Below are positions 1,689-59,426 of a stretch of 64,000 nucleotides of DNA, piece by piece (within the stretch, counting starts at the first letter, position 1; each line of letters begins with the position of its first letter). The stretch lies in the IMG/VR virus record IMGVR_UViG_3300027833_000011, one strand, 5' to 3'. The position numbers were made by a program, and so were the translations under genes. Source of the stretch: a virus. Lineage: Duplodnaviria > Caudoviricetes. The notes beneath the pieces are model-generated. The model saw only the letters and a program-made list of their open reading frames with translations, was not told where the DNA came from and made no database searches.

Positions 1689-2304
1689 TATTATGATTAA
1701 ATTTTTAAAGAAATTATTTAGTAAAGATGTTTTATTTGACTTATCAAAGATTGATGGGTTTGTTAAAAACTATGAATTAGACTTAGATAAGTTTGAAAAG
1801 GACTGGATGACAGGTGATGGTGTTTCTGATTACGTTAAAGGTGTTAATCACGAATGGTTATCTCCGGAATCGGTAAGTTTAGAAAATGAAGAAATACACA
1901 TAACGTCTATACATAGACCGATTAATGTTGGGGGTGAAATATTTGACTATAAAACAGGTGTGGTAACAACAACACGTTTTTTTAGTTATGGTTATTATGA
2001 GTTCTCAGTAGATTTACCAAACAAAAGTTCACATACGCCAACTGTTGAGATATTCAACCCTGAAAGTAACATTGAATTAGTTACGGGTAATTATGGGGTT
2101 AAAAAAATTGGTTTATTATATTTAAACAAGAAAATAGAACTTTACCACGACAATATTTTAGTTAAGAAGATTAAGAACGGGAATATAGGTTCTGAGGTGA
2201 AGTTAAGAATTAAGCACGGATTAAATCCTTCGGTTGAAGGTACCCACATTAAAGGTAACGATACTTTAAGGTTGATTAGTTTAGACTATTACAGAAAAAA
2301 ATGA
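1678..2304 (+). CDS. Degenerate GH16/ConA-like jelly-roll protein
   Basis: GVVTTTRFFSYGYYEF resembles the GH16 G..T...F.YG.FE segment; no ExDxxE catalytic motif seen. Confidence 0.45.
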   Translation: MKINIMIKFLKKLFSKDVLFDLSKIDGFVKNYELDLDKFEKDWMTGDGVSDYVKGVNHEWLSPESVSLENEEIHITSIHRPINVGGEIFDYKTGVVTTTRFFSYGYYEFSVDLPNKSSHTPTVEIFNPESNIELVTGNYGVKKIGLLYLNKKIELYHDNILVKKIKNGNIGSEVKLRIKHGLNPSVEGTHIKGNDTLRLISLDYYRKK

Positions 2305-3230
2305 TACTAAAATTAGGTTCTAAAGGTGAGAGTGTTAAAGAAATACAAGAGTTTCTCGGTATTACAATGGATGGTGATTTCGGTCCAAAAACTGAGAGAG
2401 CAGTTAAAGAATGGCAAAAGACAAAAGGACTATTTGTTGATGGTATTGTTGGTCCTTCCACTTGGAACGCTATGGGTATTGCTACTACTGATATATCGGA
2501 AATTGCGTTAACAGATGGAATAGTTATCAATAAGACTTATTTACCCGACGGTGAATATTATAAAGGGCCTGTGGATAAAGAATACTTATTTTTACACCAC
2601 ACGGCAGGTGGAAATAACCCATATAGAACTATATTACATTGGGGTAGAGACAGTAGAGGTAGAATTGCAACTGAGTTTGTTATTGGAGGTAAGTCAATTG
2701 ATGGTGACGACCAATACGATGGTGAGATAGTTCAATCATTTTCTGAAGGGGGTTATTCATGGCATTTGGGTAAGAATGGCTCACAACATATGCACGTACA
2801 CTCAGTAGGTATTGAGGTTTGTAATTATGGTTATCTAACTAAAGGTGGGTACAAAAAGAAAATTAATGGTAGACGTGTTTGGGTGGATAGAGACCCTGAT
2901 TCTTATTACGCATACACAGGTAGTAAAATACGTGAAGAGGATATTGTGTTTACTGAGGAATTTAGAGGTTATACTGCGTGGCACGCATACACAGACAAGC
3001 AAATTGAGTCTTTAAAGGAGTTAATACTTTACATCAAAGAAAGAGATGGTATTGACATACAAAAGGGATTAATTAGTGAATATAAAAAAAATGGTTTGGA
3101 TTCATTTGAATGGAATTCAGATGCATATTATGGTAGAATTAAGGGTATGTGGACACATACAAACACCAAAAAAGGTAAGTCAGATATGTCACCCCAACCC
3201 AAACTGATTGAGATGTTACTCAGTCTATAA
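2301..3230 (+). CDS. Endolysin: PG_binding_1 domain plus N-acetylmuramoyl-L-alanine amidase (Amidase_2)
   Basis: LKLGSKGESVKEIQ..DGDFGPKTERAVKEWQ..DGIVGPSTW; Zn ligands in FLHHTAG, WTHTN and SDMSP; IGIEVCN. Confidence 0.9.
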   Translation: MILKLGSKGESVKEIQEFLGITMDGDFGPKTERAVKEWQKTKGLFVDGIVGPSTWNAMGIATTDISEIALTDGIVINKTYLPDGEYYKGPVDKEYLFLHHTAGGNNPYRTILHWGRDSRGRIATEFVIGGKSIDGDDQYDGEIVQSFSEGGYSWHLGKNGSQHMHVHSVGIEVCNYGYLTKGGYKKKINGRRVWVDRDPDSYYAYTGSKIREEDIVFTEEFRGYTAWHAYTDKQIESLKELILYIKERDGIDIQKGLISEYKKNGLDSFEWNSDAYYGRIKGMWTHTNTKKGKSDMSPQPKLIEMLLSL

Positions 3231-11324: not shown

Positions 11325-11822
11325 TTAGTATAGTTTGTCTCTAAAGAATACTGATTCCTCATCGGATAAGTAAGCCTCACCATTAGTTAATCTTTTTCTT
11401 TCGAACTCTAAGATACCCATAGCGACTTTTTTATCATATTCTTTATCGTCTGTCATAGGTATTAATGCGTCGTAATATATAAGACCTGTAAAACGTCTTC
11501 TAGTTCCGTCTTTATATGAAAACAATTCATCTACATCGTTTTCATCTAATTCAATTTGTCCAAATTCGCTTTCTTTGAAATGGTTTACTTGACTTAGTGG
11601 GTTTACTTCATCCTCATCTTCATCATCATCTTGTTCTGATAAGTTAGGGTTATCGTAGTTTTTGACCTTATGGTCTTCACCGTGAGCTAAGTCTTTTTGT
11701 TCTCCATTTGCGTAATCACTAAACGGTTCAGACTCAACATGCGTTTCATCAATTTCAGAGTTAGTCATAGATTCAACTATACGTTTAAATTGTGATTCGT
11801 CTAATTTAATTTTTTTACTCAT
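11325..11822 (-). CDS. Acidic hypothetical protein (MSKKIKLDESQFKRIVE start)
   Basis: 165-aa ORF; TATTTATA motif on the minus strand at 11855-11862. Confidence 0.7.
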   Translation of the reverse strand: MSKKIKLDESQFKRIVESMTNSEIDETHVESEPFSDYANGEQKDLAHGEDHKVKNYDNPNLSEQDDDEDEDEVNPLSQVNHFKESEFGQIELDENDVDELFSYKDGTRRRFTGLIYYDALIPMTDDKEYDKKVAMGILEFERKRLTNGEAYLSDEESVFFRDKLY

Positions 11823-11912
11823 TATAAAATGTTTTTAAGAATATGATTCTACTATATAAATATAAGAAAACCAAAACAAAGTTAATTTTTACCTATATAA
11901 ATGTAAATAATG

Positions 11913-11944
11913 TTTGGATATAAGTGAATTAATTTTTACTTTTG
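11913..11944 (+). promoter_or_regulatory. Bacteroidota sigma70-type promoter for the operon containing the phage sigma factor
   Basis: TTTG ending 11916, 20-nt spacer, TACTTTTG 11937-11944. Confidence 0.7.
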
Positions 11945-11964
11945 TCTACTTATAAAATACATAT

Positions 11965-12546
11965 ATGAATAAAAGAAATAAGTCATACCTACTTTTCCTT
12001 TATGGGATTTGGATAGATGAGAAAGATATTATACGTGCACTACAAGAGACACTAATAGTTGTAATTGACTCAGGGTATATGAAGTTTGTACACGGACCAG
12101 GTTCCGCTATTGTTTGTTTTAAGTCACAAGAAAGTTTTGAGGATTTATCTGAGTTTATACAAGATTCTTTACCAAACTACGTTACTAATCACATATTCAT
12201 TCCAAAACCAAGAAAATTATCACATAGATTTCCTGATGATATGGATAAACACTTATTTGATGTTGATACCAACACCAATGATTTAGTTGATAAGCAAAAT
12301 GAAAAATATGAATCACCACCTGATATCCCTATGAATATGGAGGACTTCGATAACCCAATTTTTGATGGTATTATAGGTAAAATAGATGAGATGTTTGAGG
12401 ACTTTGTAACAGATGTAAAGAAAATTACAAACAAATCAAATAATTTTAATATTGATGATATATTGGATAAGATTACAGAAAATGGCGTATCTTCGCTAAC
12501 CAAAGAAGAAAAAGAATTTTTAGATAAACAAAACAACCAAAAATAA
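11965..12546 (+). CDS. Hypothetical protein with a C-terminal DUF6576-like motif
   Basis: IDDILDKITENGVSSLTKEEKEFL C-terminus. Confidence 0.65.
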   Translation: MNKRNKSYLLFLYGIWIDEKDIIRALQETLIVVIDSGYMKFVHGPGSAIVCFKSQESFEDLSEFIQDSLPNYVTNHIFIPKPRKLSHRFPDDMDKHLFDVDTNTNDLVDKQNEKYESPPDIPMNMEDFDNPIFDGIIGKIDEMFEDFVTDVKKITNKSNNFNIDDILDKITENGVSSLTKEEKEFLDKQNNQK

Positions 12547-12549
12547 TAT

Positions 12550-13341
12550 ATGGCTAAATACACATCACACATCAACCAAGACGAGATATCACATTATCTT
12601 AAAGAGTTAAGAAAGATTCCTGTTATCACACCTGCTAGAGAAAAGGAACTGTCTAAAATTATGTTAAATCCGAATGTAACCCAAAGAGAGACTGATAAGG
12701 TACATAAAGAATTGTTGGAGGGTAACTTAAGATTTGTTATAACAGTGGCTAAAGACTACCAAGGTCAAGGTATTGATTTATCTGACTTGATATCTGAAGG
12801 TAATTTAGGTCTTATGAAGGCGATTAAGTCATTTGATTGGAGTAGAGGTTTAAGATTTATATCATACGCGGTATGGTGGGTTAAACAATCAATCTTCCAA
12901 TGTCTAAATGAAAATTCAAGGACTATTAGGTTACCTGTTAATGTTGTACAAGAAGTACAAAAGGCAAAAAAACAAGATAAACGTGTGGAGGATTTAAATC
13001 CACGTCTTAGTAATTTAGCACACGCAATCACCTTCGATGACCATATTAATGAGGAGGGTGACACTATGTTCGATTTATTAGAAGATGTTGAAGCGGTAAT
13101 GCCAGATTCAGCTTTGGACGGTAAAGATATAGTTAAAAGACAACTCCTTACTATTATGGATGTCTTAGACGAACGTGAAAATGCTATAGTTAAAGATTAC
13201 TTCGGAATCACTGGTACTCCAAGGACTTTAGAAGACATTGGTAATGATTTCGGACTTACAAAAGAAAGGGTCAGACAAATTAAAGAAAAGGCGTTACGTA
13301 AGTTACGTAATGAGTCAGACGCAATATTTGACTACTTATAA
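12550..13341 (+). CDS. RNA polymerase sigma70-family factor (group 1/2-like, no region 1.1)
   Basis: YLKEL, NLRFVITVAKDY, DLISEGNLGLMKA..FDWSRGLRFISYAVWWVKQSI, region 4 TLEDIG..FGLTKERVRQIKEKALRKLR. Confidence 0.93.
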   Translation: MAKYTSHINQDEISHYLKELRKIPVITPAREKELSKIMLNPNVTQRETDKVHKELLEGNLRFVITVAKDYQGQGIDLSDLISEGNLGLMKAIKSFDWSRGLRFISYAVWWVKQSIFQCLNENSRTIRLPVNVVQEVQKAKKQDKRVEDLNPRLSNLAHAITFDDHINEEGDTMFDLLEDVEAVMPDSALDGKDIVKRQLLTIMDVLDERENAIVKDYFGITGTPRTLEDIGNDFGLTKERVRQIKEKALRKLRNESDAIFDYL

Positions 13342-13393
13342 AAGTTTGACTATTTATAGTGATATGTGTATTATTTAAAAATACTATGTCATT

Positions 13394-21472: not shown

Positions 21473-22282
21473 ATGAATAATTATTACAAAATTTTAGGAT
21501 TAAGTAAAGACGCAAGTCAAGAGGACATTAAAAAGACTTATCGTAAACTTTCTAAAAAACACCATCCAGACATGGGAGGTGATGATGAAATGTTTAAAAA
21601 AATTAATGAAGCTTATAGTGTGTTGGGTGATGAGAAAAAAAGAAAAGAACATGACAATCCAAGACGTGGTTTTGATGATATATTCTCGTCAGGTGGTTTC
21701 GGTTCTGATTTTATGGAAAGTATGTTCAATCAAAGTAGGTCTCGTAGATACAGAGGTTCCGACATAAAAATTGACTTAACTATCACGGTAAAAGATTCTA
21801 TGATGGGAGGTGAGAAGGAAGTGTCATATTATCGTATGACTAAAGATTTCAGAGAAGAAAGACGTAGTATAAAGATTAATATACCACAGGGTGCAGACGA
21901 TGGTAATCTTTTCAGGGTTTCAGGTGGTGGTAATCAAGGGGAGTCCTCACCGGGTGATTTAATTATAATTATTAATATAGGTTCAGATGGAGTGTATTCA
22001 AAATCAGGTTTCAATCTTTTTTATAACTTAGAGTTGAACCCTTTAGAGATATTAACAGGTAAAGAGGTTACGATTGATTTATACTACAGTAAGATTAAAG
22101 TAAATATCCCATCGTGTGTTGATATGAATAAACAAATGAGAGTTAAGGGTAAAGGATTTAAAACACGAAGAGGTTTTGGTGATTTGTTTATTACATTTAA
22201 AGTAAAAACACCAAAAGAATTATCTGAATATGAATGGAGATTAGTTGAACAACTAAAAAAAGGAGACAATTTTAGAGATTAA
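21473..22282 (+). CDS. dnaJ: DnaJ/CbpA-type co-chaperone (J domain plus C-terminal domain, no zinc finger)
   Basis: NYYKILG..EDIKKTYRKLSKKHHPD, G/F region, GSDIKI..G..GDL, KGKG..GDLF. Confidence 0.9.
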   Translation: MNNYYKILGLSKDASQEDIKKTYRKLSKKHHPDMGGDDEMFKKINEAYSVLGDEKKRKEHDNPRRGFDDIFSSGGFGSDFMESMFNQSRSRRYRGSDIKIDLTITVKDSMMGGEKEVSYYRMTKDFREERRSIKINIPQGADDGNLFRVSGGGNQGESSPGDLIIIINIGSDGVYSKSGFNLFYNLELNPLEILTGKEVTIDLYYSKIKVNIPSCVDMNKQMRVKGKGFKTRRGFGDLFITFKVKTPKELSEYEWRLVEQLKKGDNFRD

Positions 22283-22779: not shown

Positions 22780-23118
22780 TTAACCGTTATTAAAATCTAT
22801 ATAACTTACGGCAGATATCCTCATATTATCTTTATATTTAACCTCACCAATTAAAACACCTTCGAGGTTGTAAAATTTCCATTTACCTGAACGTTTACCT
22901 TTATAAAATTGTGCGGATGCTTGTAATTTACCATTTGTGTGGTAAGAATACCAATATCCGTCTTTTTTACCGTCCCAGTAGGTACCTTTCTCTAATAATT
23001 TACCATCGGTACTTGTGATTGTGACTTCTGAGTAACCATTTTTTGGAATGTTTTGACCGTATGATACAGTCATAATAAGTAAACCTAATAAAATTGTCAT
23101 TAATTTTTTCATCTTCAT
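22780..23118 (-). CDS. Secreted MORN-variant repeat protein (YwqK-like)
   Basis: Signal peptide; G.Y..GKKDG.W..Y...G.L...G.Y..GKR.G.W repeats. Confidence 0.75.
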   Translation of the reverse strand: MKMKKLMTILLGLLIMTVSYGQNIPKNGYSEVTITSTDGKLLEKGTYWDGKKDGYWYSYHTNGKLQASAQFYKGKRSGKWKFYNLEGVLIGEVKYKDNMRISAVSYIDFNNG

Positions 23119-23283: not shown

Positions 23284-24162
23284 ATGTTTAGTTATATAGG
23301 AGGAAAAAGTAAAATAGGTAAATGGATTAAAGAGTTTATACCTACAGATATGGAAACTTATGTGGAACCATTCAGTGGTGCTTTTTGGGTTTACTATAAT
23401 TTAGATTTGGCGTTATACCCAAACTTAAAGACAGTGGTATATAATGATTTTAATAAGGTAAATGCTAACTTATTTGCTTGTGTAAAGAAATATGGTGAGT
23501 TTTACGAGTTTATTAAAGACATTCCCGCTCAAGAGAAAGATAGGTTTGAAAGATACCAAAAAGGAGCGTTTGAGGACTTTGATTTTGACCCAGACACCCC
23601 TAATTTTCAAAAAGGTTTGGAGTATATCTACGTTGTGACTCAAGTGTTTAGTGGGATTAGACCTGAAACGTCTAACTTCATAGATTTAAAGGGTAAATAC
23701 AATTCTAAATTCAACTCATTTAGAAATAAACTAAATAATCCCAAGTACTATAAGCATTTTCAAATGATAACGCATGTTAAGAATGAGGATTTTGAGGATA
23801 TCATTAATGAGTTTGATTCACCAACCACATATTTTTATTTAGACCCACCATATTGGAAAACTGAGGATTATTATTCTAACCAAGACTTTGACGTGACAGA
23901 CCACAAAAGACTTTCAGAGGTATTAGGTCGTATTGATGGTAAATATAGTCTATCTTACTACGATTTTGAGTTATTGAAAGAATACTACCCAAAAGACACC
24001 CATAGATGGACGAGTAAAGATTACGCAAAGGCTGCAGGTGCGGTATCAGGTAAAAAACAGACAAAGGCTAGTGAGTTATTGATTATGAATTATAATGATA
24101 CAACGTGGCAAGATGTTATTTTAGAAAAAGAAAATATTACAGACGATACATTTGGAAAATAA
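23284..24162 (+). CDS. dam: DNA adenine methyltransferase (Dam/D12 class)
   Basis: FSYIGGKS, YVEPFSG, YNDFN, FYLDPPY, ELLIMNY. Confidence 0.9.
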   Translation: MFSYIGGKSKIGKWIKEFIPTDMETYVEPFSGAFWVYYNLDLALYPNLKTVVYNDFNKVNANLFACVKKYGEFYEFIKDIPAQEKDRFERYQKGAFEDFDFDPDTPNFQKGLEYIYVVTQVFSGIRPETSNFIDLKGKYNSKFNSFRNKLNNPKYYKHFQMITHVKNEDFEDIINEFDSPTTYFYLDPPYWKTEDYYSNQDFDVTDHKRLSEVLGRIDGKYSLSYYDFELLKEYYPKDTHRWTSKDYAKAAGAVSGKKQTKASELLIMNYNDTTWQDVILEKENITDDTFGK

Positions 24163-27663: not shown

Positions 27664-28473
27664 ATGGCAGACTTATTAAAATATCACAAATCTTTACCTT
27701 TAACAGAACAAGAAATATTAGACAGAGCACCATCTGTTTTTGCAACAGAGGCTTCAGGTCACGTTTCAGAGAAGTACACTTTTATTCCAACAACTCAAGT
27801 TATTGAGGATATGGAGGAGTTAGGTTGGAAAGTATATTCGGCGGAACAAAGAACTGCTAGAACTAAGGTTAGAAACACACACACGAAACACTTATTACGT
27901 TTTCGTAACGACACTCTAACTGAAGTGTTAGGTTGTATTCCTGAGATTACACTAACCAACTCACACGACGGTCGAAACGCATTTCAATTCTATGTTGGAC
28001 TATACAGACCTGATATTCAAAGTTCTTTTGTAATTCGTCACGAAACGTTGAATGGTTTACGTATCAAACACCAATGGTACACGTTAAATGAGGTAAGAGA
28101 AGTAACACAAAAAGTTATTAATCACCTACCAGTTTTAATCGAACAGGTACAATTATTAAACAACACGACAATCGGTAAAACAGAACAAAGAGAATACGCG
28201 ATGAGAGCTATGATGACACGTTGGGGTAAAGACTACCCTTCAATTTTACATAGAGTCGTTATGAATCCGATTAAAGGTGAAACAGTGACATTGTGGGACG
28301 CATTTAACAACGTACAAAACCATATTCTAAACGGTGGTATCACTTACACATTAGCGTCTAAACGACAACAAACTGTAAGAGCGATTACAAACGTCGACTT
28401 AAAAATTAAAATCAACGAAGAGTTGTGGGAAGTGACCCAAGGGTATGTCAAACTAAAACAAAAAGTATATTAA
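27664..28473 (+). CDS. DUF932/DUF945-family protein
   Basis: RAPSVFA..VSEKYTFIPT..GW..HTKHLLRFR..PEITLTNSHDG..F..GLYR. Confidence 0.85.
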   Translation: MADLLKYHKSLPLTEQEILDRAPSVFATEASGHVSEKYTFIPTTQVIEDMEELGWKVYSAEQRTARTKVRNTHTKHLLRFRNDTLTEVLGCIPEITLTNSHDGRNAFQFYVGLYRPDIQSSFVIRHETLNGLRIKHQWYTLNEVREVTQKVINHLPVLIEQVQLLNNTTIGKTEQREYAMRAMMTRWGKDYPSILHRVVMNPIKGETVTLWDAFNNVQNHILNGGITYTLASKRQQTVRAITNVDLKIKINEELWEVTQGYVKLKQKVY

Positions 28474-28474
28474 C

Positions 28475-28500
28475 AAAAAGGGACCTCGAGTCCCTTTTTT
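28475..28500. terminator. Intrinsic terminator
   Basis: AAAAAGGGAC-CTCGA-GTCCCTTTTTT. Confidence 0.85.
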
Positions 28501-28529
28501 TATTCGGTAAAAACTCTTATCTTTACTCC

Positions 28530-30188
28530 ATGGTTGAAAATCTGTATAAGAATATTTTTGATGAACATAGGATTACGTATCACGAAGTGTCTAATGATGC
28601 GACTTTAATGCGTAACATAGAGGACCATAAAACCAATGCGTCTAGAATGGATGGGTATAGTAAACATAAGTTATATTATTTTACCGTATCTAAATATTCA
28701 GAAAATAAAGAAGACTTTATTGATGAATACGGTAATATGTTATGTGACTTGGAGAATACTCGAAGAACTGTTGTCGTTGAAAAAGAGGGGGATAAGGTTA
28801 GGTTATCTTTTTACTATTATAAGAAATTTAGGAAGGTGGGTAAGTTGTATTTTGCTAAGATGTACGACCGACATTATCTGACCTATAATTTAAAGACTAA
28901 TAATTTTTATATGACAAACGTTATGAAGTCGATAGGTTATAGAAGAAGTAAACGAATACGTTGTAACCCAACACATAATATTAGTCGAGTGGTTGAACAC
29001 ATTCATGACTTTAAGTTTACTAATGATGATTCAGAATATCTTAAAGTGTTTATGAGGGCTTTAGACCCTGAAACTAACTATGGTAAAGACAAGTACTTAA
29101 CATTTGAAGAGGCATTCATAAGATTCTTTGTTGGTAGAAATGGTATTAAAGGTCCAAATCATATGACATCGTTAATATTGAGAAATTATCCAGGTAAGAA
29201 GTCCTTAAAGAAGAATGGGTATAATCTAATACATTCAATATTAGATAATGTTGGGTTGAAAAGTAAGTACTTCGTTAGTTTAATGAACAACTATAAACCT
29301 GATTTAAGTTATTTGATTCAATATGCTAACCTATTAGGGTTAAAATATGTTAAGAGTATTAATAAGGAGTTTTTTAAGAAAGAGAGGGCTCCGTATGAAA
29401 CCTTTGTTGATTTAAAGAAAAAGTATTACGAAGATACGGAAAATTATCCTATTTACCAAAACATTACTGATTATGATAGAAAAAACATAGTTAAGGTTAT
29501 CAACGATTTTACGGTTACGAGTCCTGACACACCAATTAATAGTACACGTTCTATGAATATCACAGGGCTGATAAATGACCATATTAGGATTATGGATAAC
29601 TTAAGAACGTTTGAGGAGGATATTAAATTTAAGTCTAAGACTTATTCAGAATTTGAGCAAGAACACGTTAACTATAGTGAGAAGTATTCGTTATATAGAA
29701 ATTCTGAGGAGATTTACTACCAATATGATGAACAAATAATTAATGGTTTAAAGAATTCACAAAAAGGGTATGAGTACGTATTATTATCGAATGATATGGA
29801 CTACATAAATGAGTCTACACATCAAAACAATTGTGTTAGAACTTATATTGATAAGTTTGATTCTATAATCATTTCTGTTAGACTTGGGGGTAAAAGAATA
29901 ACGACTGAATTCACATACAAAGGTGATTGTATTCAAAAGAGAGGGTCTTATAATAGTGAAGTTGACGAATCTTTTAATGAGGGTATTATGGAGTTGGAAC
30001 GTATTATGAAAACTATTTATTTGAGTGGGGGGTTAAAACAACCAACTATCAAAATAAAGAATAAACTTAACGGAGACGAAAAACACTATACTATTAAAGA
30101 GTTAAAAACGAATGGGTATAGACGTTCTAAAGGTAATGAAGGTTTTTTGGATTTTGTCGACGATGAATTAGATTTTATGTTAATATGA
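28530..30188 (+). CDS. PcfJ-like domain protein (start at 28530 rather than 28425)
   Basis: DHIRIM..H..; C-terminal ESTHQNNCVRTY..IISVR..TTEF..Q.RG..N. Confidence 0.7.
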   Translation: MVENLYKNIFDEHRITYHEVSNDATLMRNIEDHKTNASRMDGYSKHKLYYFTVSKYSENKEDFIDEYGNMLCDLENTRRTVVVEKEGDKVRLSFYYYKKFRKVGKLYFAKMYDRHYLTYNLKTNNFYMTNVMKSIGYRRSKRIRCNPTHNISRVVEHIHDFKFTNDDSEYLKVFMRALDPETNYGKDKYLTFEEAFIRFFVGRNGIKGPNHMTSLILRNYPGKKSLKKNGYNLIHSILDNVGLKSKYFVSLMNNYKPDLSYLIQYANLLGLKYVKSINKEFFKKERAPYETFVDLKKKYYEDTENYPIYQNITDYDRKNIVKVINDFTVTSPDTPINSTRSMNITGLINDHIRIMDNLRTFEEDIKFKSKTYSEFEQEHVNYSEKYSLYRNSEEIYYQYDEQIINGLKNSQKGYEYVLLSNDMDYINESTHQNNCVRTYIDKFDSIIISVRLGGKRITTEFTYKGDCIQKRGSYNSEVDESFNEGIMELERIMKTIYLSGGLKQPTIKIKNKLNGDEKHYTIKELKTNGYRRSKGNEGFLDFVDDELDFMLI

Positions 30189-31969: not shown

Positions 31970-32782
31970 ATGGAAAAAAAATACGAGATTAAAGTTAGAG
32001 ACAAAGGTTTTAGCGTGTTACGTACTGATGACGTAATAGGGTTTAAAACATATACGGTTGTTAATGAGAATGACAGTAACTACTATACCGTATCAGTTGC
32101 TAATAACGCAACCTTAAAAGAATCTAATAATGATGAGGTTTTTTATGTTATCAAAGAGAAAGGTAGAAGTATTATTAGAGAAAATATAAACACAATCTTT
32201 CCAACCACAATTGTAAATTACTTTCTATCGAATTTAAATGAAAATGAAGAGTATGTGGGGGAAGGTAATTCAGAAGAGGTTTTAGATTACCTTTACGACA
32301 CTTTCAATGGATTAAGTTACCGAGTAAGACATGTGATATATTACGACAACATAAAAGACTCTTTAGATTATGAATTCTTATTGATTATTGGAGGTGATTT
32401 GGATACTGTATATCTTTCAGTTAAGGAAAACGGTGATATTTTTGTTGTTGACAATGACGAAGTTCATTTGTTAGGTGATACAGGTTCTCCTGAGTATTTT
32501 GAAAAATCTTTATCTACTTACTTAAGTGGTATGGAACATTTTACTGCGATGGTTAATGAGGATACGGATGATGAGGTCATCATTGAGTCATTTAATCAAA
32601 CACACGGTATTGTAATAGAAAATAGAATCGCTCAAATATACAATAAGGATACTTCAAAATCTTGTGGTTATATTGATAGACGTAATGGCGTTTATAATTT
32701 AACAGAAGAAGTTAAATTATATGGGGTTGATAGATTAAAATCTATTGTTGAAAACTACGAAGTAAAACAATTACTTAAATAG
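31970..32782 (+). CDS. Hypothetical protein
   Basis: 270-aa ORF after TATTTATA at 31946. Confidence 0.7.
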   Translation: MEKKYEIKVRDKGFSVLRTDDVIGFKTYTVVNENDSNYYTVSVANNATLKESNNDEVFYVIKEKGRSIIRENINTIFPTTIVNYFLSNLNENEEYVGEGNSEEVLDYLYDTFNGLSYRVRHVIYYDNIKDSLDYEFLLIIGGDLDTVYLSVKENGDIFVVDNDEVHLLGDTGSPEYFEKSLSTYLSGMEHFTAMVNEDTDDEVIIESFNQTHGIVIENRIAQIYNKDTSKSCGYIDRRNGVYNLTEEVKLYGVDRLKSIVENYEVKQLLK

Positions 32783-32784
32783 TA

Positions 32785-33336
32785 CTATTGTCTTATTAGT
32801 AGGTCTATAAAGTGTTCTTTAAGGTCCATTCTTTCTTCTTCGGGGTAACTACACCACTGCCAAGTAATACTTGATTTAATCGTGTCTATTTCGGTCTGAA
32901 CTTTCTTACAGTTTTTCTCTAAGGTATCTAAATCTTTCTTATCAAATTCTTTTTCGATATCAATATCTAATTCGTCTGATAACATAACCAACTCCATTAG
33001 ATTTAAATTTTCATATGCTTTAGCTGCTTTTGAAAATATCTTATTCATCTTTTCGTCCTTAATAACATCAGGATGTGTTTTACGTGAGATATTACGGTAC
33101 AGTTCTTTTGCGATTTTAGAGTTGTTCTTAGGTTTAACTTCTTCGTTAAGTTCATCGATTAGTTTTTGACCCTCAGCGGATGCCTTATCAATACCATCAT
33201 GATTAGACTCGTCCATTAAGGTGTCTTTAAAGTCCTCCATAAATATTGAGGTATATTCCTCCTGTTGTGAAGTTACTTCGTCTAACTCTAATTGGAGGTA
33301 TTTGTATTTAAACACCCATTTTTTCGTTATGTTCAT
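32785..33336 (-). CDS. Protein with a central J domain (HPD motif)
   Basis: AKELYRNISRKTHPD..KMNKIFSKAAKAYE. Confidence 0.75.
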   Translation of the reverse strand: MNITKKWVFKYKYLQLELDEVTSQQEEYTSIFMEDFKDTLMDESNHDGIDKASAEGQKLIDELNEEVKPKNNSKIAKELYRNISRKTHPDVIKDEKMNKIFSKAAKAYENLNLMELVMLSDELDIDIEKEFDKKDLDTLEKNCKKVQTEIDTIKSSITWQWCSYPEEERMDLKEHFIDLLIRQ

Positions 33337-33337
33337 A

Positions 33338-34315
33338 TTAAAATATAATAAGTTCTTTGGTTTTGTCTAACTTTTCCCATTGAAATTTATCAGGATTATC
33401 AAAACCGTTAATATAGTAATCTTTATAATTTGGTGTGAAAAAATCTAACTTATCTTTCATTTGTTTAATTGATAGAGGAAAGACATCCATTACACAACTA
33501 TAAATATTTTTCATATCGTATTTCTCAGTACCAAATGAATTAATATTAAAACTTAATGGTGTAATTGAACTTTGATTAAAGTTAACACTTATTAAACATT
33601 CGTCCATTAATGAACTATTAACAATGTTTTTAGACATATACCTCAAATAAAGAGGTAGTATTCTATTTGGTGATAATGGGTCAGAACCAATGAATTGATT
33701 ATTGGTTGTTGGTAATTCGTGATAACTATGTAGAGTATTATTATTGGTATAGAACTCACTATGGGTTGTATATGTATTTAAGATACTTACAGATGGTTTC
33801 TCTAAGTTTGGGTCGTCGAGTCTAACAATATTTAAAACGTCTTTCTTAGACACACTCCTGTCGTTAGTCATAACAGTAATTGATATGACATTACATTCTT
33901 TAGTATCGTATGTTAATTGACAAATATGTGAGTGACTTTTACTCAACCCGTCTACAATTTTTTGAGAGATGTGTTTACCAATGGGGTATGAATTGACTAC
34001 GTTTTTTGTTGAGTACCCATAATAGTTACCATAATGTAGTGTGTCAGAATAAATTGGCGATTTTTGTTGAAAAAAATTAATCTCGGAGAACGTATTAAAT
34101 AACTCAAAATTATCTTGGAAAAGGTATGATTTCAAATCAATTAAGTTTGTAGTAGGAAGATAGATATTACAGTATTTACCAAATATTGAAGTATTTATAT
34201 TGTAAGGAAACAGATTGTTACACTCAATGAAGTAGTCCACAATAGATTCGCTAATAATATTAGGAATAGATTGTTTAGTTTTAACCGAATAAGACTTGTA
34301 ATTTCTGTATCTCAC
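33338..34315 (-). CDS. Highly diverged S-adenosylmethionine synthetase (MetK)-fold protein lacking catalytic motifs
   Basis: Co-linear with MetK: IISESIVD, QKSPI, YGYST, GSDP..R..YLRYMSKNIV..L.D.C, SFGT, F.WEK.DK; GHPDK, GAGDQG and GGGAFSGK are substituted. Confidence 0.7.
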   Translation of the reverse strand: MRYRNYKSYSVKTKQSIPNIISESIVDYFIECNNLFPYNINTSIFGKYCNIYLPTTNLIDLKSYLFQDNFELFNTFSEINFFQQKSPIYSDTLHYGNYYGYSTKNVVNSYPIGKHISQKIVDGLSKSHSHICQLTYDTKECNVISITVMTNDRSVSKKDVLNIVRLDDPNLEKPSVSILNTYTTHSEFYTNNNTLHSYHELPTTNNQFIGSDPLSPNRILPLYLRYMSKNIVNSSLMDECLISVNFNQSSITPLSFNINSFGTEKYDMKNIYSCVMDVFPLSIKQMKDKLDFFTPNYKDYYINGFDNPDKFQWEKLDKTKELIIF

Positions 34316-34403
34316 TTTTTTTTTTAATAAATGTATATAAATTATACTACATTATAAAGGAAGTGATATTTATAAAAGTATTAAAAAAGTAAAAAGATAA
34401 TAA

Positions 34404-57768: not shown

Positions 57769-58863
57769 ATGATGTTATTAAAAATGGTTAAGGAGATAAT
57801 AATGGACAACCTAAATGAAGGTACATCGTCCGATTATGAAACGCTTAGAAAAGTCTTTAAATATGATACCGAAAAGTTATACGGTTACTTACTTAAGAGA
57901 GGTGACTTAGACTCTTTTATTAATGACATTATCAAAGACGATAGTGACGAATCTAATGAGTTAATGAAAAATATTCTACACGGAATAATATCGGAGAAAG
58001 ATGTTGATTCGTTGTATAAATATACTTTACCGATTTTCTCTGACTTAATATTGAATCGTAATGAAATTATTATGGAATTAAACGGTAGAGAAGATTTGGC
58101 TAAATTCTTTTATCATGACAGTAGTATGTCTGAAGACACTACATCATCAATATTATCGGGGGAGTATGATGAACTTTTTTATAATGGATATAATTCAGGT
58201 AAAAGTGAAATGTTTTATTACCTTAGTGATTTAACTGACAAAAACATGAAATATTTAAAAGATTACATGGTCGATGAGGGGTTAAATAAAGAAGTCAATT
58301 ATAATGGAGATAACGAAGTATTAGAAGAATTGATTGGTAAGGATGATAATATCTTAACCAAAGACTGTTTTGATGAGATTTTTAGGAGTGAGGATAATAT
58401 AATTGATGCGTTATATAGTATTGATTTATTTGAAAGTATAGAAAACAATGTCTCTAACTCCTATGATAGAGCACAGATTGCTGCTATGGAAACTGAATTA
58501 TATAACAATCTAATGGGTTCTATTGAAGATTTTTTTGGTGGTCAGGGGGAATTTAAATACACAGAAAAGAGTGAATCATACAAACAGAAATATCCTGACA
58601 AAAATCACTCACCAACGACAACGTATGTGATAAAGATTTCGGAACAGTTATATTCTGATGTGATACATTGGTGGATTGAAGAAATCAGTGATTCCGGAAA
58701 TTCTATTGGATACTGGGGAGATTTTGAAGATGTATTAGAAGAATATTGTAATGACCATCTATCGTGGAGGGATTCAATGAGGTATAGTTTTCCTGAATAT
58801 GCTGACAGTAAACTATCTTCTGATTATATGAATGAATCTTTTATGGATGATTTATATTATTAG
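57769..58863 (+). CDS. Acidic hypothetical protein
   Basis: 364 aa, D/E/Y-rich; TATTTAT at 57758. Confidence 0.75.
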   Translation: MMLLKMVKEIIMDNLNEGTSSDYETLRKVFKYDTEKLYGYLLKRGDLDSFINDIIKDDSDESNELMKNILHGIISEKDVDSLYKYTLPIFSDLILNRNEIIMELNGREDLAKFFYHDSSMSEDTTSSILSGEYDELFYNGYNSGKSEMFYYLSDLTDKNMKYLKDYMVDEGLNKEVNYNGDNEVLEELIGKDDNILTKDCFDEIFRSEDNIIDALYSIDLFESIENNVSNSYDRAQIAAMETELYNNLMGSIEDFFGGQGEFKYTEKSESYKQKYPDKNHSPTTTYVIKISEQLYSDVIHWWIEEISDSGNSIGYWGDFEDVLEEYCNDHLSWRDSMRYSFPEYADSKLSSDYMNESFMDDLYY

Positions 58864-59426
58864 TCAAATAAAGATACTAACTTTTCCTTTATTACCATAC
58901 TTTTTACTGAATTGACATAGTTTTCTGATTCTGCGTATGAACGACTTAAATAGTTGTAGTACTGTTCTTCAGTTTTTAAATCTTTAAGGTATGTGCTTTG
59001 ATAAAATGCATAATCTAATACTGATGAGACCCAATCAGAATAATATGCGTGGTTTCTATTAGTTCCCAATGCGGTATTCACTCTAACACGAGCTTCTTTC
59101 ATACCAAATAGGTTATGGTTCTCAATGAATATATCACTTTCCCAGTATCCTGTTTCAACCATTGATTGTGCCATTACGATATGTGGAAACTTAATATTAA
59201 GACTCTTAAGTTCTGTTACTAAATTTTCTTTTGAAAAGTCATACGATTCATCATTAACACTCATTAGTATAATTTCTTTTTCATACCTATCAACTATTGG
59301 AGACTTAGAGTATCTACCATAGAAAAATGATATAATGTTTGTGAGTAGTAATAGATATAAGACATGTAATAGTCTCTTTTTGACGCTAACAAACATCAAT
59401 TTTTTCTTATCGTAACGATATAACAT
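58860..59426 (-). CDS. GH73 glucosaminidase (peptidoglycan hydrolase) with an N-terminal TM
   Basis: IVMAQSMVETG..NHNLFGMK..AYY..W..SV.DY..SYAESENY. Confidence 0.85.
   Translation of the reverse strand: MLYRYDKKKLMFVSVKKRLLHVLYLLLLTNIISFFYGRYSKSPIVDRYEKEIILMSVNDESYDFSKENLVTELKSLNIKFPHIVMAQSMVETGYWESDIFIENHNLFGMKEARVRVNTALGTNRNHAYYSDWVSSVLDYAFYQSTYLKDLKTEEQYYNYLSRSYAESENYVNSVKSMVIKEKLVSLFD

Follow-up and report, generated by a model that had tools for sequence, protein, structure and literature searches.

Introduction

Restriction-modification, BREX and other defences depend on S-adenosylmethionine (SAM) as their cofactor, and phages are known to attack it through SAM lyases and, in the case of T3, through inhibition of the SAM synthetase, MetK. 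Phages also carry functional metK genes of their own. That of NatCom_35866 (PV036449.1) encodes a protein of 389 residues and lies directly upstream of a DNA methyltransferase, and further examples occur in Helicobacter, Staphylococcus, and Faecalibacterium phages. These proteins match all three Pfam domains of MetK (E-values of 1e-31 to 1e-58), and their genes adjoin a methyltransferase, which fits a role in SAM supply. Herein we analyze a 64,000-nucleotide stretch of phage DNA (IMG/VR record IMGVR_UViG_3300027833_000011, termed the window) that carries a gene for a MetK-like protein, which we call pseudo-MetK, followed immediately by a gene for a specialized J-domain protein. In common with the functional phage MetKs, pseudo-MetK is a phage-borne metK homologue in a genome that contains a DNA methyltransferase. 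Unlike them, however, it matches only the C-terminal Pfam domain, and its gene, separated from the methyltransferase by 9 kb, is coupled instead to that of the J-protein. The two genes are as follows.

33338..34315, minus strand: pseudo-MetK open reading frame, 325 amino acids plus stop, with a GTG start codon at 34315 and a TAA stop codon at 33338-33340
32785..33336, minus strand: specialized J-domain protein of 183 amino acids, with the HPD motif at residues 88-90 and an ATG start codon 1 nucleotide after the pseudo-MetK stop codon

Based on the data presented below, we put forward the proposal that pseudo-MetK is a non-catalytic, protein-binding protein of the MetK fold that works with the J-protein/Hsp70 system, and we consider the chances of this proposal to be about even. 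A search of the open-access literature found no description of a natural, catalytically dead and conserved MetK, nor of a module of MetK and a J-protein.

Two described cases bear on what a MetK-derived protein might do to the host enzyme. The T3 SAMase, a SAM lyase (PDB 8bb1 and 7ock), binds and inhibits host MetK (10.1101/2023.02.27.530186). Its likeness to pseudo-MetK would be one of proposed outcome only, namely a lowered SAM synthesis in the host, and that only if pseudo-MetK poisons the host enzyme, as the SAMase has an unrelated fold, is enzymatically active, and attaches to MetK from the outside. In the Arg264His form of the methionine adenosyltransferase (MAT) MAT1A (R265H in rat), which is dominant, a defective subunit can pair with the wild type and thereby abolish SAM production by the mixed dimer (PMC7271947). 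The equivalent Arg is lost in pseudo-MetK (Asn192), but MAT1A Arg264His is a single substitution, whereas pseudo-MetK differs at 43 of 67 conserved positions and has also lost the partner Glu (Asn41).

On the side of the J-protein, HscB is a specialized J-protein that delivers a single client, IscU, to Hsp70. The one studied phage precedent is Rki of phage RB43, a J-protein that steers DnaK and targets both DnaK and sigma-32 (PMC3486835). The 183-residue protein of the window is comparable, being a phage-encoded J-protein of small size that carries the HPD motif and whose C-terminal part is non-canonical. Outside the J-domain it has no sequence similarity to either HscB or Rki.

Homology of pseudo-MetK to MetK

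Canonical MetK/MAT (PF00438, PF02772, and PF02773; E. coli structures PDB 1fug, 1rg9, and 7ll3) has a fold of three tandem beta-alpha-beta-beta-alpha-beta domains that is common to pseudo-MetK, which is about 60 residues shorter. The three domains differ in how readily they are recognized. Specifically, the C-terminal domain, S-AdoMet_synt_C, is found at residues 208-315 of pseudo-MetK (E = 3.8e-18, 66.2 bits against a cut-off of 25), whereas the N (PF00438) and M (PF02772) domains are below the Pfam thresholds, with no match in pseudo-MetK at E-values up to 10. A phmmer search of the PDB returned only MetK/MAT chains, with E. coli MetK (1fug) at an E-value of 2e-12 and residues 207-320 aligned to its residues 261-374. 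In tblastn, identity to MetK over the C-terminal domain ranges from 25 to 35% across the matches, the best of them reaching about 35%, and the motifs GxDP, R..RY..KN.V, FGT, P.Y, and PWE are present in this domain of both proteins. Overall, pseudo-MetK is about 19% identical to any MetK.

The N-terminal and central domains are detectable only by profile-profile comparison and by fold. We assembled a family of 14 sequences, consisting of the window protein and 13 metagenomic relatives at 41-99% identity, and compared it by hhalign with 20 canonical MetKs. The two profiles align over 304 columns (probability 99.85%, E = 1e-30), with residues 16-320 of pseudo-MetK corresponding to residues 21-377 of MetK. 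An AlphaFold2 (AF2) model of pseudo-MetK, calculated from an alignment of the family together with canonical MetKs, has a predicted local distance difference test score (pLDDT) of 86.6 and a predicted template modeling score (pTM) of 0.87, and in Foldseek it matches about 50 MetK chains with template modeling (TM) scores of 0.79-0.86 and E-values of about 1e-23, the top matches all being MetK. It should be noted that, because the alignment contained MetKs, this fold match is partly built in and not fully independent. The model calculated from the 14 family sequences alone has a pLDDT of 56 and a disordered C-terminal half, making it unusable for global comparison; with this model, to which no MetK rows contributed, Foldseek returned MetK chains only (E = 1e-7). 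A search of the BFVD viral fold library gave no meaningful match. By these alignments and models, pseudo-MetK is a full-length, collinear homologue of MetK, at a level far beyond chance.

An earlier, sequence-only reading of this DNA had described an intact frame of 325 residues at 33338-34315 that runs collinear with MetK. The frame is present as described, and the phmmer and hhalign alignments reproduce every motif pairing that had been listed, which are (pseudo-MetK/MetK) NIISESIVD/DQISDAILD, QKSP/QSxD, YGYS/FGYA, GSDPLSPNR...RYMSKNIV/GKDPSKVDR...RYIAKNIV, SFGT/TFGT, and QWEKLDK/PWEKTDK. A structural match to MetK, the lack of which had been named beforehand as one refutation of that reading, was found by both hhalign and Foldseek at the values given above.

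Loss of the catalytic apparatus

The catalytic motifs of MetK and the residues that occupy their places in pseudo-MetK are listed below, where the numbering is what we take to be that of E. coli MetK, anchored on the motifs.

GHPDK (catalytic His14, Mg-binding Asp16): KTKQS in pseudo-MetK (P0001), at positions that are variable within the family
Glu of ET (Glu42): Asn41
Glu of GE (Glu55): Pro54
GAGDQG (Asp118) with the preceding gating loop: a deletion of 8 residues and then HYG, the Asp position being variable in the family
PDxK (Lys165): deleted, with Ile/Cys instead
DTGLTGRK (Asp238, Arg244, Lys245): SEFYTNNN, with Arg244/Lys245 changed to Asn192/Asn193
Glycine-rich phosphate loop: TTNNQFIGSDPLSPNR (in part TTNNQFIGSDPLSPN), with Lys265 changed to Ser, Lys269 to Ser (Ser215), and Asp271 to Asn (Asn217)

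Hence, pseudo-MetK lacks the acid-base His, the Asp, Lys, and Arg residues that bind metal and phosphate, the glycine-rich loop, and most of the gating loop, and none of the catalytic motifs is present in any of the 14 family members. The sequence-only reading had noted the replacement of GHPDK, GAGDQG, and GGGAFSGK. These changes are seen as KTKQS, the deletion with HYG, and TTNNQFIGS, respectively, and the losses go further to include Glu42, Glu55, Lys165, Arg244/Lys245, Lys269, and Asp271. The first Lys of the loop is kept only in P0014, the most divergent member, which suggests a stepwise loss from a functional ancestor. Pseudo-MetK is a homologue of MetK that has none of the motifs of the enzyme. 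It is catalytically dead by every criterion that can be applied to a sequence, MAT activity is not expected, and its proper label should be that of a MetK-like pseudoenzyme and not of a SAM synthetase.

Selection and the pattern of conservation

All 13 relatives of the window protein have 318-327 residues and no frame breaks. The ratio of non-synonymous to synonymous substitution rates (dN/dS), calculated by the Nei-Gojobori method for unsaturated pairs only (window, L007, and L008), is 0.08-0.11 overall, 0.08-0.14 in the N-terminal two thirds, and 0.07-0.11 in the C-terminal third. Pseudo-MetK is kept under strong purifying selection in one lineage of large marine phages. The claim in the sequence-only reading of an intact, MetK-derived pseudoenzyme thus agrees with the dN/dS of 0.08-0.14 and with the full length of all 14 members, and neutral evolution, which that reading had named as evidence against itself, was not seen. 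One could still view the gene as a relic, a former auxiliary metK that is drifting to loss. All of the catalytic motifs have indeed been lost, but the start codon and the operon junction are conserved, and we give a relic next to no probability. As a decaying pseudogene, the gene is ruled out by its dN/dS of 0.08-0.14, its constant length of 318-327 residues, and the absence of frame breaks at 41-99% identity.

To describe what has been kept, we considered the 67 positions of pseudo-MetK whose counterparts in canonical MetK show a conservation of 80% or more. In pseudo-MetK 24 of these are kept and 43 are replaced. Most of those kept are Gly, Pro, or residues of the core within the helix and strands of the C-domain, and they include Gly96, Gly100, Tyr101, Pro111, Gly210, Asp212, Arg218, Arg225, Lys229, Asn230, Val232, Pro253, Gly262, Thr263, Tyr297, Trp313, and Glu314. 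Within the family, the 43 replaced positions have an entropy of 1.11 bits compared to 1.14 bits for the remaining 258 (Mann-Whitney p 0.71). Because the replaced positions are conserved no more than the background, there is no sign that the old active site has been turned into a new specific pocket, and this argues against both a SAM/ATP (adenosine triphosphate) decoy and a newly acquired enzyme activity. What selection appears to preserve is the fold and the protein surfaces, in line with the kept residues being mostly Gly, Pro, and core residues.

Two alternatives need to be weighed against this pattern. In the first, pseudo-MetK is still an enzyme, either a divergent MAT or one in which the family-invariant residues carry out a new chemistry, with Asn19, Glu23, Asp27, Asn41, Lys47, Asp91, Tyr95, Lys114, Asn191, Glu200, and Asp212 as candidates. 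About 69 positions are invariant across the family, and several of these are polar and near the former cleft, which speaks for this reading. However, neither a metal- or phosphate-binding constellation nor a glycine-rich loop is left, and conservation is not elevated at the ex-catalytic positions, making continued catalysis very unlikely. In the second, pseudo-MetK is a ligand decoy or sensor, a protein that can still bind SAM, ATP, methionine, or (poly)phosphate but does not turn it over. The retained MetK fold would allow this, and a PPK2 polyphosphate kinase is encoded in the adjacent variable slot of one relative, but that neighbor is found in one lineage only. Moreover, none of the known ligand-contacting residues is left, each having been deleted or exchanged for Asn, Ser, Thr, Tyr, or a hydrophobic residue, and the positions that they occupied are as variable within the family as the background. 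We therefore see only a very slight probability for ligand binding. The SAM/ATP-binding decoy that the sequence-only reading had suggested finds no support, with the ATP, methionine, and metal contacts replaced at positions that are no more conserved than the background.

The J-domain partner gene

The gene that follows pseudo-MetK is the strongest contextual clue to its function, and it had been missed by the sequence-only reading. The Pfam DnaJ domain (PF00226) matches the 183-residue protein over profile positions 8-54 of 63 with an E-value of 1.4e-5 and a score of 25.5 bits, slightly short of the cut-off of 27.8. When seven orthologues were combined into a profile, the PDB returned only J-domains, the best being CbpA (E = 2.9e-5, residues 67-111), and the matching stretch aligns with helix II, HPD, and helix III of the CbpA J-domain. 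Across the 7 sequences there is no variation in the HPD motif or in the residues that flank it, KELYRNISRKTHPD.

The gap between the pseudo-MetK and J-protein genes is 0-2 nucleotides in all eight loci (the window, L001, L004, L005, L006, L007, L008, and L009), which cover the full divergence of the family, with pseudo-MetK identities of 41-83%. The two genes are presumably co-transcribed and translationally coupled. In the window the pair are the sole minus-strand genes from ~23.1 kb to ~58.9 kb, lying among plus-strand genes. The J-protein family comprises 13 clusters at 64-98% identity and has the same narrow distribution as pseudo-MetK, and the J-protein evolves more slowly than its partner. 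A structure prediction for the complex of the two proteins scored 0.02, which is below the mark and counts neither way.

Other degenerate MetK-like proteins

When 1.84 billion representatives were searched exhaustively with HMMER, only two 50%-identity clusters of the pseudo-MetK family were recovered, the next matches being ordinary MetKs at an E-value of 2e-21, and a scan of IMG/VR with the family patterns found no relatives. Since the best MetK matches of the HMMER search include the partly degenerate MetK-like proteins P0018, P0085, and P0026, the pseudo-MetK family is, as judged from these alignments, the extreme end of a spectrum of degeneration.

P0026, encoded on a 5.4-kb metagenome contig (L010, 3297-4982), is a degenerate MetK-like protein of 338 residues in which most of the catalytic motifs are lost, and a ClpP homologue (Pfam E = 3e-57) is located 3 nucleotides after its gene. 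It resembles pseudo-MetK in its length, in its alignment over family residues 16-321, and in having a proteostasis gene within 3 nucleotides. The two proteins are only ~21% identical, placing P0026 in an independent lineage, and they differ in that P0026, but not pseudo-MetK, still has His-Pro from GHPDK and Gly-Lys from the loop, and in that the neighbor of P0026 is a protease while that of pseudo-MetK is a J-protein. These cases, two in number, hint that degenerate MetK copies are tied more widely to proteostasis genes.

Three metagenomic proteins among the matches of the HMMER search, P0018, P0085, and P0059, keep His-Pro-Asp and Lys165 and have lost the glycine-rich loop or GRK. Clusters of short MetK-like proteins in the ESM Atlas, which are commonest in Uroviricota, point in the same direction. 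Together these sequences suggest that partly degenerate MetK homologues form a broader spectrum, as yet undescribed.

Proposed function of the module

In the mechanism that we propose, pseudo-MetK acts by binding rather than by catalysis and probably forms a flat-sheet oligomer like that of MetK. It would, together with the J-protein, probably constitute one functional module in which the HPD motif of the J-protein switches on an Hsp70. The class-B DnaJ that the window also encodes speaks for such a module, as does the narrow distribution common to the two families. Within this module pseudo-MetK may be a dedicated client, as IscU is for HscB, or it may provide the surface that recognizes a target for remodeling by Hsp70. 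Host MetK is the most concrete candidate for such a target, and the assembly of the adjacent giant fiber proteins is another.

Several points weigh against this proposal. Operon coupling of pseudo-MetK to the J-protein gene is by itself a weak sign of a shared function, and the J-domain match is under the Pfam gathering score, with helix I not recognizable. MetK is a classic chaperonin-dependent folder, and the J-protein could merely aid the folding of pseudo-MetK, in which case it would be uninformative on the role of the folded protein. The link between degenerate MetKs and proteostasis rests on two cases, with the divergent MetKs P0066 and P0097 being ordinary cellular genes and the neighbors of P0085 uninformative.

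A rival reading, raised by the sequence-only reading, is that of a poison subunit. Here, the dead MetK would enter mixed dimers or tetramers with host MetK such that SAM synthesis falls and type I restriction-modification and BREX are blunted. The active site of MetK is built from both subunits of the dimer, so every mixed dimer would be inactive, and in an extended version the J-protein/Hsp70 system loosens pre-formed host MetK oligomers and allows subunits to exchange. Pseudo-MetK keeps the MetK fold along its entire chain, and the region that is best conserved with MetK is the helix and strands of the C-domain (LYLRY.xKNIV, FGT, and PWE), which, from MAT2A structures, we take to line the dimer interface. 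There is precedent both for the mechanism, in that the heterodimer of R265H and wild-type MAT makes no SAM (PMC7271947), and for the outcome, in that the direct inhibition of MetK by the phage T3 SAMase contributes to its anti-BREX activity (10.1101/2023.02.27.530186).

On the other hand, a poison subunit would be expected to be close in sequence to host MetK, whereas pseudo-MetK is only ~19% identical to MetKs, with 43 of the 67 conserved positions changed and about 60 residues deleted, including the gating loop. The dimer interface itself is altered. In human MATα1 an inter-subunit salt bridge, Arg264-Glu57, is at the center of the interface (PMC7271947). Both partners are Asn in the pseudo-MetK family, with Asn192 in 85% of the members and Asn41 in all of them. 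This arrangement looks self-complementary and so favors homodimers; the paired Asn change would be tolerable in a self-complementary homodimer, and a mixed dimer would still be compatible with it. Furthermore, the phage needs SAM for a methyltransferase of its own, which is kept in relatives L001-L004.

23284..24162, plus strand: D12-class N6-adenine DNA methyltransferase, a SAM consumer (Pfam MethyltransfD12, E = 4.1e-21)

All considered, we regard subunit poisoning as rather unlikely. The poison subunit and the J-protein could also be combined into a two-part weapon, in which the dead MetK recognizes host MetK by means of the ancestral interface and the J-protein recruits Hsp70 to pry the host oligomer, which is very stable, apart. 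The result would be mixed, inactive oligomers or a host MetK that is unfolded or degraded. To this version we assign a low probability. If true, a central metabolic enzyme would be poisoned through its subunits with the help of chaperones, and no functional MetK pseudoenzyme would have been found in nature before.

A conserved, catalytically dead MetK would add to the pseudoenzymes a new class that descends from a universal enzyme, and its fixed coupling to a J-protein would offer a tractable case of how viruses combine specialized J-proteins with pseudoenzymes. If the target is host MetK, the module would represent a new mechanism of anti-defence or metabolic takeover; if it is not, the MetK fold would have been recruited to an unrelated binding role. 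At 1.5 kb the module is small and easy to express.

Translation start and upstream region

In an alignment of eight upstream regions, the relatives of pseudo-MetK have ATG at the position of the GTG in the window, and the residues RYRNYKSYS directly after the start are kept in all of them. Because the relatives have ATG there and the downstream residues are conserved, we conclude that the GTG is the true start of pseudo-MetK. Upstream of it lies a short region that is shared with the first of the fiber-like genes.

34316..34403: divergent intergenic region of 88 bp between pseudo-MetK (minus strand) and the first fiber-like gene (plus strand)

The same eight regions contain a conserved element, TAAATATC-N5-CTTTATAAT, which is at 34351-34372 on the minus strand and occurs only once within the window. 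The leader of pseudo-MetK is A-rich and without a Shine-Dalgarno motif. A scan for consensus promoters and terminators yielded no more sites than in shuffled sequence, and no promoter class was assigned.

In four marine RNA libraries there are contigs that match parts of the pseudo-MetK and J-protein genes at 90-99% identity; as these are assembled contigs, DNA carry-over is possible, strand and timing are unreadable, and gaps in the middle of a gene are meaningless. In the contigs of two of the marine RNA libraries the run of ten A upstream of the start (window 34316) is shorter by one A. This length difference at the translation start of pseudo-MetK is strain variation in a homopolymer.

Genomic neighborhood

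The window is phage DNA that encodes an SbcC-like nuclease, a DUF932 protein, a PcfJ-like protein, a non-specific endonuclease, thioredoxin, glutaredoxin, and a fiber-like block of 23 kb. The pair of minus-strand genes is located between the thioredoxin/glutaredoxin block and the fiber genes.

34404-57505: fiber cluster of eight genes, divergent from the minus-strand pair

This location raises the alternative that the pair is an assembly factor, that is, a chaperone module for the long, repetitive fiber proteins, or that pseudo-MetK is a minor component of the virion. Tail-fiber chaperones are usually encoded beside fiber genes, and here the pair adjoins the fiber cluster and shares its 88-bp control region with the first fiber gene, while the presence of a J-protein implies a folding task. 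However, the pair is on the opposite strand, its conserved synteny with the fiber genes is matched by conserved synteny with the whole block, and to our knowledge no fiber chaperone has the MetK fold. An assembly role is, in our view, quite unlikely.

A search by tblastn for canonical MetK within the 64-kb window found none. With the 183-residue protein, the window contains two J-proteins, the other being of the DnaJ type.

21473..22282, plus strand: class-B DnaJ/CbpA-type co-chaperone (Pfam DnaJ_C, E = 6e-32; DnaJ, E = 2e-22)

The slot that abuts the 3' end of the J-protein gene varies among the related phages, while its flanking genes are conserved.

31970-32782, plus strand, this window: 270-residue protein of no assigned function
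11526-13367, L004: PPK2 polyphosphate kinase, 613 residues
11035-12255, L005, and 1975-3219, L009: proteins of 406-414 residues of no assigned function

A second difference in gene content is seen at L009:4462-5481, where a glutamine-synthetase-like gene of 339 residues (Gln-synt_N and Gln-synt_C) adjoins thioredoxin; the window has the non-specific endonuclease at this place. Further features of the window are two isolated minus-strand genes and a gene downstream of that for DUF932.

22780-23118, minus strand: MORN-repeat protein, isolated gene (E = 2e-9)
58860-59426, minus strand: glucosaminidase-domain protein, a possible lysin, isolated gene (E = 2e-13)
28425-30188, plus strand: 587-residue protein with a PcfJ-like domain and a weak NAPRTase N-terminal match

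A Shine-Dalgarno-like motif precedes only 1 of the 49 plus-strand genes of the window, and the leaders are A-rich. Such A-rich leaders that lack the motif fit a host of the Bacteroidota type, although they are no proof of one. The DNA of the window recurs in the metagenomes of several studies, the samples being marine, seawater, and coral-reef. The pairing of DUF932 with a PcfJ-like protein is usual on conjugative elements.

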